Shown: positions 12,696 through 63,904 of the stretch, in pieces
Layout: the number at the start of each line of letters is the position of its first letter
Position numbering within the stretch: the stretch's first letter is position 1
Assembly: GCA_964016885.1 (NCBI GenBank)
Contig: OZ024750.1
Coordinates: forward strand, 6,820,001-6,884,000
Source: Eledone cirrhosa
Taxonomy: Eukaryota
Length of the DNA: 64,000 nucleotides
Reading direction: 5' to 3'
The notes under the pieces: generated by a model
The model's database searches: none
Told to the model about the DNA's origin: nothing
Seen by the model: only the letters and a program-made list of their open reading frames with translations
Translations under genes and position numbers: made by a program

Positions 12696-12766
12696 TATTT
12701 TATTATGCGCATTTCAAAAACAAATATCATCTTGAGATGACATTTGCGTTTTCGTCAGATAAAATA
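12696..12766 (-). ncRNA. Minimal type I hammerhead ribozyme motif, intact core (Penelope-type)
   Basis: Minus strand: UAUUUUAU / CUGACGA / 16-nt-arm stem II with one mismatch and a UCAA loop / GAAA U GCGC A UA / AUAAAAUA. Stem I is 8 bp and stem III is the palindrome AUGCGCAU. Predicted cut between 12704 and 12703. Confidence 0.85.
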
Positions 12767-13154
12767 GGGAGACATGATATGAAGGTTAAAAAACACTTGT
12801 GAATAGTGCAGTTTTAAATCAACAAATCAATATATATATATATATACCCGTGTGCTCTGTGAAAGAGATCTCTCTACTGTGCAATGCCCTCTCTCCAAAT
12901 GTGTGTGACTTTCTTCAAATATTAACATACTACCAGGCTTTACACTGTTTTCACAGAAAGGTTATTTATATATAAATTAAGTCCATGAATTATTTACAAA
13001 ATAGTGAAATATGACGGCTGGTTTTCATAACACATAAATTTATTTAATGACTTTCATAACATGTCTCTCAACATAAGATCCGCGTGGAATATGATATAAA
13101 TATGTCATAAAACTTAGTACTTCTTTCTCCTTATATTCTCACACTAAATTGGTG

Positions 13155-14815
13155 CGAGAGTGGTGGTGGTGTAGTGTTGTGTGGAGAGAGCGGTGGTGGT
13201 GGTGGTGGTGGTGTAGTGTTGTGGTGTGATGTGTGGAGAGAGTGGTGGTGGTGTAGTGTTGTGGTGTGATGTGTGGAGAGAGTGGTGGTGGTGGTGTAGT
13301 GTTGTGGTGTGATGTGTGGAGAGAGTGGTGGTGGTGGTGTAGTGTTGTGTGGAGAGAGTGATGGTGGTGTAGTGTGGTGTGGTGTAGTGTAGTGTAGTAT
13401 AGTGTGGTGTGGTGTAGTGTGGTGTGGTGTGGTATGGTATAGTGTGGTGTGGTGTGGTGTGGTATGGTATATATAGTGTGGTGTGGTGTAGTGGTGTGGT
13501 GTAGTGTAGTGTGGTATGGTGTGGTGTGGTGTAGTGGTATAGTGTGGTGTGGTATGGTATATATAGTGTGGTGTGGTGTGGTATAGTGGTGTGGTGTGGT
13601 GTAGTGTAATGTGGTATAGTGTGGTGTGGTGTGGTGTGGTGTGGTGTGGTGTGGTGTGGTATAGTGTGGTGTGGTATGGTATATATAGTGTGGTGTGGTG
13701 TGGTGTAGTGTGGTATAGTGTGGTGTGGTATGGTATAGTGTGGTGTGGTATGGTATAGTGTGGTGTGGTGTGGTGTAGTGTAGTGTGGTATAGTGTGGTG
13801 TGGTATGGTGTAGTGGTGTGGTGTGGTGTAGTGTGGTATAGTGTGGTGTGGTATGGTATATATAGTGTGGTGTGGTGTGGTGTGGTGTAGTGGTGTGGTG
13901 TGGTGTGGTGTAGTGTGGTATAGTGTGGTGTGGTATGGTATAGTGTGGTGTGGTGTGGTGTGGTGTAGTGTAGTGTGGTATAGTGTGGTGTGGTGTGGTG
14001 TGGTGTAGTGGTGTGGTATAGTGTGGTGTGGTATGGTATATATAGTGTGGTGTGGTGTGGTGTAGTGGTGTGGTGTGGTGTAGTGTGGTATAGTGTGGTG
14101 TGGTATGGTATATATAGTGGTGTGGTGTGGTGTAGTGTAGTGTGGTATAGTGTGGTGTGGTATGGTATATATAGTGTGGTGTGTAGTGGTGTGGTGTGGT
14201 GTAGTGTGGTGTGGTATGGTATATATAGTGTGGTGTGTAGTGGTGTGGTGTGGTGTAGTGTGGTTTGGTATGGTATATATAGTGTGGTGTGGTGTAGTGG
14301 TGTGGTGTGGTGTAGTGTGGTATAGTGTGGTGTGGTGTGATGTGGTGTAGTGTAGTGTGGTATAATGTGGTGTGGTATGGTATATATTGTGTGGTGTGGT
14401 GTAGTGTGGTATAGTGTGGTGTGGTATGGTATATATAGTGTGGTGTGGTATGGTATAGTGTGGTGTGGTGTAGTGTGGTGTGGTGTAGTGTAGTGTGGTA
14501 TAGTGTGGTGTGGTATGGTATATATTGTGTGGTGTAGTGGTGTGGTGTGGTATAGTGTGGTGTGGTATGGTATATATAGTGTGGTGTGGTGTGGTGTGGT
14601 GTAGTGGTGTGATGTAGTGTGGTATAGTGTGGTGTGGTATGGTATATATAGTGTGATGTGGTGTAGTGGTGTGGTGTGGTGTAGTGTGGTATAGTGTGGT
14701 GTGGTATGGTATATATAGTGTGGTGTAGTGTAGTGTGGTATAGTGTGGTGTGGTATGGTATATATAGTGTGGTGTGGTGTGGTGTAGTGGTATAGTGTGG
14801 TGTGGTGTGTGGAGA
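13155..14815. repeat. Complex pentamer-based satellite (GTGTG/GTGTA/GTATG/GTATA), about 1.7 kb
   Basis: The + strand is nearly devoid of C and the block GTGGTATGGTATATATAGT recurs. This repeat is the source of the 560-aa HT-rich ORFs. Confidence 0.95.
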
Positions 14816-14837
14816 ATGCAATAATGTGGTACCACTT

Positions 14838-15060
14838 ACTGCTGGAATGGATCTCCGCTAGTTTCGACGATGAATGTCCAGTTGTTTTGTTTTTTTCTCT
14901 ATCAACGCAAAACAGCTTGCTCGTGAAGTTAACGTGTAAGTGGCTGAGTATTCCACAGACACACCTTGTCTAATATATCTTTTATTTATTTATTTTTAAG
15001 TGGTGTGATTTGAGAGAAATTAGGCTGCTATTTCTAGCAGGTCAAGCGACAACATTGAGG
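14838..15060. mobile_element. Degenerate SINE-like repeat segment
   Basis: GCTTGCTCGTGAAGTTAACGTGTAAGTGGCTGAGTATTCCACAGACAC followed by GTGTGATTTGAGAGAAATTAGGCTGCTATTTCTAGCAGGTC. The latter is shared with 15675-15720 and 58703-58750. Confidence 0.55.
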
Positions 15061-61522: not shown

Positions 61523-63685
61523 GCTCACGTAAGAACCGTGTCTATAACTCCGTTTCAACTCCCGGTTAAAGCTATTGTGTTTAAGAAAAAAAAAACACAC
61601 GATGCACTGCACATGAAAACAGCAGAAGGTGCGTAAATTAAGAAATATCAATCAACGGTAATAATTATTTATCATTATCAATTATTATTAATTATTATTT
61701 AATATTTGTCATAGTATAATTATTAGTATAGTTATTAAACTAGCTGGCTGTATTTGTCTTTCTCTGTCTGATAGAGGCTGTGTGCATGTGTGATTCTGTA
61801 GTAAGAGAAAAGGCGGCGGCGGCGGCGAGTGTACCATGTGCAAGATGTGATAGTTAAAGGGAGGGGGGAACATGCAACATTAAGCCTAAAGACTGTTGCA
61901 GCAGCAGCAGTAACACTAGCAGCAGCAGCAGCTTATTACGGTCGCACTGTGCCAAACTCGAAAGACAGGAATCCTGCTTTGTTCTGTAAGCAACCTATTT
62001 TATATATTCTCTCAACTTGATGCTCACATTGTATCCTATTCCAGATATATAGTTCTTCTTCTTCTGTGAGAGAAAGTACTAAACACACGCGTATATACAT
62101 ACACACACACACACACACACATGTATACACACGTACACACACACACACACATGTATACACACGTACACACACACACACATGTATACACACGTACACACAC
62201 ATGTACATACACTCGTACACACACACACACATGTATACACACGTACACACACACACACACATGTACACACACTCGTACACACACATGTACACACACACAT
62301 GTACACACACTCGTACACACACATGTACACACACAATCACGTTCACACACACACACACACACACATATGTGTACACACACATGTACACTCACACGTACAC
62401 ATACGCACACGTACACACACACACGTTAACACGTACACACATATACACACACATACATGTATGCACAACACATGTACGTACACACATACGTATACACACA
62501 CAACACACCTACGTACACACATACGTGCTCATATACACACACACACAACACATACGTACCCACATACGTACCCACACGCACAACACACGTACGTACACAC
62601 ATACGTACTCATATACACACACACACATCTACATGCACACGTACGTACACACACGTACACACACACACAGATATATTAGTGTAGAAACACACACATTCAG
62701 CCTTACACCAACCAGTTCTGTCTTATATTCTGTCTCAGAGAAACCCGCTCAATAGAAAGTTTCAAGTTTGTGTTGTATTTGTTAAATATTAAGGCCTGGA
62801 TATTGAGGCCCTGGCTTGGCTGTGTCTTAATGACCCAATAAGGGGCTGGTGATGATGAGGGCTAGATTGATGGTGGTGGGGGTTATAGTGGTGGTGATGG
62901 TGGGGGTTATAGTGGTGATGGTGGTGATGGTGAGGGTTATAGTGGTGGTGGTGATGGTGATGGTTATAGTGGTGGTGGTGATGGTGATGGTTATAGTGGT
63001 GGTGGTGATGGTTATAGTGGTGATGGTGATGGTGATGGTTAGAATGAGGATAGGGGTAATTACAGTGACGATAATGAGGGTCAGTGATGATAATGGTGAT
63101 TAGGGTGATTGTGATGGTTATAGTGATGGTGATGGGGGTGATGGTTATAGTGATGGTGATGGGTGTGATGGTTATAGTGATGATGATGGTTATAGTGGTG
63201 GTGATGGTGATGGGGCTTATGGTGATGGTGATGGGGGTGATGGTGATGGTTATAGTGATGGTGATGGGGGTTATAGTGATGGTGATGATGGTTATAGTGT
63301 TGGTGATGATGGTTATAGTGTTGGTGATGATGGTTATAGTGTTGGTGATGATGGTGATGGTCAGTGAGGATAATGGTGACTAGAATGATGATAGTGATTG
63401 CTAAAATGATGAGAGTGATGATGACAACGATGATGATGATGATAACCGCAATTATTCACAAGGACAATAAAAACGAAAATAAAAATTCTAGAAACAACAA
63501 AATTGAGCATCAATAAGGAGGGAGTTGTAACATAAGAGGATTTCATTAATATTACTGTTAACACTAACGATATATATATATATATATATATATATATATA
63601 TATATATATTAAAATATATATATATATATATATATATATATATATTAAAATATAAGTATTAATAAAATAGATGTTCTTTTGATCA

Positions 63686-63749
63686 ATTACATTTTATTAT
63701 ACATATTTCGGAGGTACAAACAGTACGTCCTCATCAGACAAAATATAAT
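63686..63749 (-). ncRNA. Minimal type I hammerhead ribozyme motif, intact core (left arm)
   Basis: Minus strand: AUUAUAUUUUGU / CUGAUGA / GGA c GUAC UGUUU GUAC c UCC / GAAA U AUGU A UA / AUAAAAUGUAAU. Confidence 0.85.
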
Positions 63750-63841
63750 GATACATGACATACCCTGAGGTGTTAAATGGTTAAGATTTAATCAAGGTAG
63801 TAAATCTTAACCATTTAACATCTCAGGGTATGTCATGTATC

Positions 63842-63904
63842 ATTATATTTTGTCTGATGAGGACGTACTGTTGTACATCCGAAATATGTATAATAAAATG
63901 TAAT
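63842..63904 (+). ncRNA. Minimal type I hammerhead ribozyme motif, intact core (right arm)
   Basis: 12-bp stem I with two G-U pairs, CUGAUGA at 63854-63860, GAAA at 63881-63884, triplet AUA. Predicted cut after 63892. Confidence 0.87.

Follow-up and report, generated by a model that had tools for sequence, protein, structure and literature searches.

Hammerhead ribozyme motifs in a 64-kb stretch of the Eledone cirrhosa genome as probable parts of 3′ pseudo-long terminal repeats of Hydra-clade Penelope-like retroelements

In a 64,000-nucleotide stretch of the genome of Eledone cirrhosa (GenBank assembly GCA_964016885.1, contig OZ024750.1, positions 6,820,001 to 6,884,000 of the forward strand; hereafter the window), hammerhead ribozyme (HHR) motifs of one architecture stand at three loci, which an earlier note, made from the letters of the DNA, had regarded as unrelated. 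We consider it highly probable that these motifs lie in the 3′ pseudo-long terminal repeats (pLTRs) of families of Penelope-like elements (PLEs) of the Hydra clade, that the window copies are 5′-truncated and likely inactive, and that the motif of an active element is predicted to cut only when paired with another. As judged from sequence comparison, the three loci owe their common architecture to descent through three sister families of retroelements, here called A, B and C. The retroelement context accounts for the inverted pair of motifs at the third locus, for the (TA)n flanks and for the copy number.

How are the motifs connected to coding elements? Walking upstream from the longer copies of family A leads through an untranslated region (UTR) of about 1.1 kb to an endonuclease (EN) and a reverse transcriptase (RT). 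HHR A lies 954-1,296 nt downstream of EN in 24 of 30 loci found by an EN search. With a UTR query for family B, 16 of 24 loci had EN upstream, and the B motif followed it by 0.84-1.35 kb in 15 of these 16; RT or EN was on the same arm in three of seven family C loci. The layout of the element is pLTR with HHR, tail, an open reading frame (ORF) encoding RT and then a GIY-YIG-type EN, a 3′ UTR of about 1 kb, and again pLTR with HHR; the order of pLTR with HHR, tail, short 5′ UTR and ORF was seen in two partial tandems. RT and EN share one frame of 569-589 amino acids. The family A proteins have DKT in place of DKG, YRDD, a CxCX5C linker, and CxxC and CxH around E and N, with CCHH absent. These motifs match the definition of the Hydra clade (PMC8557442), and they agree by eye with published Hydra proteins; one RT fragment resembles Hydra-1_Obim. 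In a midpoint-rooted tree of 23 partial RT fragments, whose relatives are unnamed database sequences with Hydra motifs, all eight HHR-linked rows are on one side of a 97/95 branch, with the topology (A,((C,C′),(E,B))). Since the HHR-linked RTs group together, the three loci are not unrelated but paralogues, 3′ pLTRs of sister families. Among the other loci, L116, L231 and L170 have arms that lack internal parts or change from one Hydra family to another, in which a family A tail stands directly before the RT of a more distant family, and the sequences suggest that these came from template jumps.

The four window motifs, whose cores lie at 12758 (-), 56558 (+), 63737 (-) and 63854 (+), carry exactly the described stem I UAUUUURU / AUARAAUR, the core CUGAYGA and GAAA-U-NNNN-A-UA; the AUA triplet with U15.2-A16.2 is present in all of them, and GCGC, AUAU and AUGU are confirmed as the stem III tetramers that form their loops. 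They are type I HHRs, with CUGANGA, GAAA and UH in order together with stems I, II and III, and AUA conforms to the NUH rule. Stem II had been described as freely varying; it follows a fixed plan, in which the three pairs at the foot are succeeded by a C that faces C, U or A and by a further helix of 4-12 bp, and the sequences of B and C can be aligned with each other. In an alignment of 11 representatives, 98% of the cells pair, and both sides are changed in five of the six scored stem II pairs and in both dimer pairs of loop III, while stem III itself is invariant. This set consists of chosen related sequences from which the structure was drawn, and the shuffles of it give no probabilities. 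The changes on both sides of stem II support a real hammerhead lineage whose structure is kept although its sequence changes. The earlier note had named lack of covariation in stems I and II as grounds for refutation; for stem I, where one of eight pairs changes on both sides, this objection stands, whereas stem II does covary in this set.

Why should such motifs need a partner? To close stem III, a monomer has to spend 2.8-3.5 kcal/mol. The double hammerhead has -41.3 (A), -26.2 (B) and -21.0 (C) kcal/mol against -30.6, -22.2 and -20.6 for twice the minimum free energy of the monomer, and the preference for it is clear for A, modest for B and barely seen for C. From these energies, the motifs are likely to cut only in pairs, with stem III of the dimer type. 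In other loci, L118:6149 (+), L045:8954 (-) and L045:9213 (+) are HHRs with a different, GC-richer stem I and the same U-NNNN-A stem III, and the former two likewise have a stem II of three pairs followed by a C.C mismatch.

The extrapolation to a very large population in the genome proved to be right. A pattern for the 5′ half (stem I plus the first core box, followed four bases on by C) has 76,795 exact matches in the genome, which is 3.0 Gb in size and rich in microsatellites, and nine in the reversed control; with a base other than C at that place there are 4,435 matches against 289. Thus, C occupies this stem II position in 94.5% of 81,230 matches, and a single lineage accounts for a motif in about every 39 kb. 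In the 30 matches that come first by genome position, AUA is found in 28, seven or more stem I pairs in 27, a palindromic stem III in 25, and a stem II foot with three paired bases in 24; position 4 is mismatched in all 30, and a (TA)n run stands behind 29, as it does at all three window loci. A first look at repeats gave 660 (A), 2,725 (B) and 1,199 (C) candidates, 40 of which were scored for each family; contigs of three sequencing runs inform on presence only. Subfamily B′ of the lineage has an intact motif about 280 nt past the window end (L043:279-345), inserted in the (TA)n behind the C element. On C1, at about 92.985-92.992 Mb, at least nine matches to stem I plus the first core box recur about 657 bp apart in both orientations, possibly a retrozyme-like tandem array derived from the lineage.

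What might the near-invariant unpaired C of stem II do? As a tentative idea, to which we give rather less than even weight, the lineage would be a distinct variant of the hammerhead, in whose extended stem II this C docks on the fixed U-rich stem I, or on RT, and replaces the usual contact made by loop II; together with AUA and the palindrome, this would leave a lone RNA uncut and have a tandem RNA trimmed. If so, the copies in the genome, about 80,000 from six subfamilies or more, would amount to a mutational scan of the design made by nature.

Several points weigh against the reading as Hydra-clade pLTRs with a dimer-type ribozyme. The linkage of family C depends on three loci, and six of the 30 A loci are without a motif match (one with a small motif duplication, two with too short a flank, and three with none). 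A stop-free full-length ORF was not seen, the longest real frame being of 589 amino acids; RLRWI occupies the place of RWK in two family A copies; and the family A ORF did not match Pfam GIY-YIG, and matched RVT_1 only at E 0.059. Membership of the Hydra clade, probable as it is, rests on motifs and insertion habit rather than on a phylogeny that includes named Hydra proteins. Conservation of stem I is at the level of its sequence, with almost no covariation. The margin of the C dimer is 0.4 kcal/mol (+ arm), with energies that exclude pseudoknots and tertiary contacts, and cleavage itself is a prediction. No Rfam hammerhead family was found at E <= 10 at the three loci, and a review reports that AUA can cut much more slowly than GUC or GUA (PMC3138052). 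Beside these points, a Pfam GIY-YIG search of the genome returned canonical PLEs, and not the partners of A, B or C.

In the window, the copies take three forms. Family A is present as one arm by itself, and family B as a pLTR arm beside which a short inverted arm carries the tail; family C has a full insertion with two arms, so that the pair at 63.7-63.9 kb is a single insertion with motifs on opposite strands. The features are as follows.

12665-12830 (-): family A 3′ pLTR, a single 5′-truncated arm without tail, between (TA)n runs
12696-12766 (-): type I HHR A, predicted cut between 12704 and 12703; stem II of 3 bp, C.U mismatch and 12 bp
56365-56472 (-): family B inverted short arm, the last 15 nt of the pLTR plus tail, ending in (TA)n
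56426-56450 (-): family B bulged tail hairpin, a few nt behind the first insertion end
56477-56654 (+): family B 3′ pLTR, from the common 5′ start of the family to (TA)n
56550-56610 (+): type I HHR B, predicted cut after 56602; stem II of 3 bp, C.C mismatch and 7 bp
63646-63801 (-): family C left arm, pLTR without tail; its (TA)n end is at 63571-63645
63690-63745 (-): type I HHR C of the left arm, predicted cut between 63698 and 63697
63802-63948 (+): family C right arm (pLTR), joined 5′-to-5′ with the left arm
63846-63900 (+): type I HHR C of the right arm, predicted cut after 63892; stem II of 3 bp, C.A mismatch and 4 bp
63949-64000 (+): family C tail, with a bulged hairpin at about 63954-63985; it extends about 43 nt beyond the window into (TA)n

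A cis dimer of the motifs at 63.7 and 63.85 kb was considered and rejected: they are on opposite strands, and a read-through RNA forms a single hairpin of -211.5 kcal/mol in which the core is buried.

The copies beyond the window reveal how the arms are built. Arms stop at two fixed sites about 90-100 nt apart; relative to the cut, the ends are at +51 (43 arms) and +139 (41) of 114 arms in A, at +61 (39) and +152 (38) of 110 in B, and at +56 (23) and +159 (25) of 57 in C. The 30 position-ordered motifs include eight divergent pairs, and in every one of these a short end is combined with a tail end. In all three families a bulged hairpin stands behind the first end, and a tandem A copy has a second hairpin behind the tail end. 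These arm ends agree with the inverted arm and one-sided tail published for Hydra PLEs (PMC8557442), and with the two RT start sites of Poseidon_Ac (PMC11167929). Arm lengths are continuous, from 15 nt to several kb. For family C, queries with the HHR only gave variable arms with upstream UTR, so that the idea of this family as a fixed miniature inverted-repeat transposable element (MITE) was rejected. Short arms often share one start, 65-80 nt upstream of the core. This start is a TCACT-like motif common to several subfamilies, which was judged against the initiator consensus, and in seven of nine long C copies a TATA-like run was seen by eye about 30 nt upstream. We infer a promoter at this start, and pLTRs are described as containing promoters (review, PMC6765202).

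From these observations, the following life of the element may be postulated. A transcript would begin at the shared start of the short arms, and the RT-EN protein would nick both strands of a (TA)n run, where cDNA synthesis would start just 5′ of the two small hairpins behind the HHR. The far ends of two cDNAs would then join, to give mirror-image pairs like that at 63.6-64.0 kb. RNA initiated in the pLTR would produce the short arms, and tandem read-through or circular RNA the long ones. In a lone motif, stem III, with 2 bp and a palindromic tetraloop, would be unstable, and the RNA would stay uncut and be copied whole, while two motifs on the same strand of a tandem transcript might form the double hammerhead and be trimmed to unit length. 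An excess of 5′ ends at the cut site was not seen (none in B, none in C), so the copied RNA should be mostly uncut; three apparent starts at the cut in A were rejected, two as alignment breaks in a diverged subfamily and one as a (TA)n overlap.

Is the ribozyme under selection in the copies that we see? With copies found without an HHR query, in small samples, private changes amount to 4/516 in the core against 53/3399 in the rest of the pLTR for A (p 0.23), and to 7/220 against 35/1817 for B (p 0.21). Inserted copies decay neutrally, and core constraint was not detected in them. Shared subfamily variants are absent from the core, stem I and stem III. Because private core changes occur at a rate that does not differ from that of the rest of the pLTR while no core variant is shared, constraint appears to act on the active masters, and the window copies are likely to be relics.

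Other explanations have to be considered. Chance matches in AT-rich DNA, or convergence at unrelated loci, might come to mind, as stem I is only of A and U, the window is 21-47% GC, and the Rfam hammerhead models have no match. A strict descriptor, run over both strands of the window, however, gave four matches, and none in each of 40 blockwise dinucleotide shuffles, the control that had been proposed; a relaxed descriptor found the same four against a shuffle mean of 0.175. With the 76,795 matches against nine in the genome, the fixed position behind related ENs and the grouping of the RTs, this explanation is refuted. Another possibility, which we hold unlikely, shares the retroelement origin and supposes that the motif no longer cuts usefully but is kept in the masters as a folded signal, such as a binding site of RT-EN or a part of the pLTR promoter. 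It would fit with the preservation of stem I as sequence without compensation, with 5′ ends that are not piled at the cut site, and with the reported slowness of AUA (PMC3138052); in Poseidon_Ac, moreover, HHR mutants were without effect on insertion in vitro, and the HHR cut only with protein (PMC11167929). However, the 11 core positions have no shared subfamily variants in A and B while elsewhere in the pLTR there are two and seven, respectively, and the loop III palindrome survives double changes (GCGC and AUAU), as a cutting dimer requires and a promoter does not.

It is also rather improbable that the short copies represent, instead of truncated PLE ends, non-autonomous retrozymes or MITE-like elements that are independent and have a small, possibly circular RNA of their own. 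Preferred starts could be taken in this way, as 29 of 57 C arms begin at -110 to -91 from the cut and, in family B, 14 of 30 copies begin 70-89 nt upstream of the core, and the array of units of about 657 bp near 92.99 Mb of C1, with the lineage's stem I and core start, might represent such an element. But the same pLTRs run upstream into 3′ UTR, EN and RT at many loci, arm length varies continuously between 15 nt and several kb, the copies in the window stand singly or inverted and not head-to-tail, and RNA initiated in the pLTR accounts for the shared start. Truncated pLTRs of Hydra-clade PLEs thus continue to be the preferred origin of the window copies.

The window contains further repeats. 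About ten HHR-like loci had been counted in it; about nine can be found if other families are included, while only four belong to this lineage, and loosening the descriptor rules did not reveal a fifth window member. The additional ones are at 57645 (-), 57729 (+) and 9427 (+), with half motifs at 17962 and 27610 (-). The first two belong to an inverted pLTR pair (57494-57890) of a canonical RT + GIY-YIG PLE, found through the Pfam GIY-YIG search of the genome, which we take from its motifs to be Neptune-like. Its arms are 92-95% identical to pLTRs behind the ORFs in L075, L076, L079, L085 and L088, and both HHRs have core mutations, with the same change of GAAA to GGAA, as expected if both arms were copied from one RNA. 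At 9420-9497 (+) is a degenerate type I HHR-like motif of another family, with intact core boxes, a long stem II and U16.1 changed to G. The fragments at 17925-18015 and 27573-27663 (-) are near-identical, lie between (TA)n and have only the 3′ half of an HHR (GAAA, a palindromic 6-mer and UA). Another (TA)n-inserted repeat, with a GAAAC-containing hairpin, occurs at about 18700-18900, 30700-30860, 42660-42720 and 56215-56352; two of the four pieces are inverted pairs, and one adjoins the family B element. At 6055-6200 (+) there are two CUGAUGA boxes, the second with a 10-bp helix like stem I and without an intact GAAA. A short repeat like a short interspersed nuclear element, in several deletion forms, has at least 14 window sites (for example 12484-12590, 16925-17098 and 32714-33088), and 3510-3830 is an imperfect, MITE-like palindrome with long terminal inverted repeats. 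Eight window ORFs examined with Pfam gave repeat artefacts only, and a host gene was not identified. Among 150 of the 236 Rfam matches in the window there was no hammerhead, and miRNA models fell on microsatellites and hairpins.

How does this lineage compare with known systems? HHRs in the pLTRs of PLEs, the dimer design, inverted arms and tails are already published. The Hydra clade, including Hydra-1_Obim from Octopus (Craig et al., 2021, PMC8557442), is alike in RT followed by a GIY-YIG-type EN, DKT, the CxCX5C linker, absence of CCHH, CxxC and CxH around E and N, (TA)n targets, an HHR near the 3′ end, an inverted 5′-truncated arm, a tail at a single end and, often, a weak first base pair of stem II. 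The HHRs in File S2 of that paper have GU-H triplets and a helix III of 3-4 bp, and therefore AUA, the 2-bp helix III with its palindromic tetraloop, and the C mismatch distinguish the lineage within the clade, as do its 8-bp U-rich stem I, its long stem II, its 3′ UTR of about 1.1 kb and RLRWI for RWK. Hydra-1_Obim has a different HHR and is described there without a pLTR. The small-helix-III HHRs of PLEs (Cervera and de la Pena, 2014, PMC4209133; review PMC6765202, citing Lunse et al., 2017) are also type I and in pLTRs, with palindromic 15.2-16.2 plus loop 3 and a presumed dimer; they are mostly single truncated copies, of many families per genome, some in opposite-strand pairs 100-700 bp apart. 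About 2,000-9,000 per genome are given there, against about 77,000 of one lineage here, which further differs in having no unpaired base between 9 and 10.1, a stem II of up to 15 bp, and G10.1-C11.1 confined to family C. Poseidon_Ac (Frangieh et al., 2024, PMC11167929) likewise has two insertion ends flanking a tail behind the HHR and AT-rich targets, and uncut RNA is its main template, as the absence of 5′ ends at the cut site would suggest here; it is of another clade, and its tail is inside the ORF, whereas the tail here, of about 90-100 nt, is in the 5′ UTR. Metazoan non-LTR retrozymes (PMC7229834; bioRxiv 10.64898/2026.07.22.740005) resemble the window copies in being short, non-coding units that carry a type I HHR and are related to pLTRs, but retrozymes are head-to-tail tandem repeats, while the copies in the window stand alone or as inverted arms and can be traced to elements with an ORF.

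The motif description was not found in the hammerhead, Penelope and cephalopod literature searched, mainly freely accessible papers, nor were AUA, the C mismatch and this scale in the accessible PLE hammerhead literature. Since Rfam misses the lineage, its motifs are likely to be annotated as unknown repeats or false miRNA hairpins. What the present families add is scale, a ribozyme inherited vertically with RT across sister families, and a C mismatch combined with a stem I that is fixed in sequence. This set of families also offers ready constructs for work on what PLE hammerheads do.

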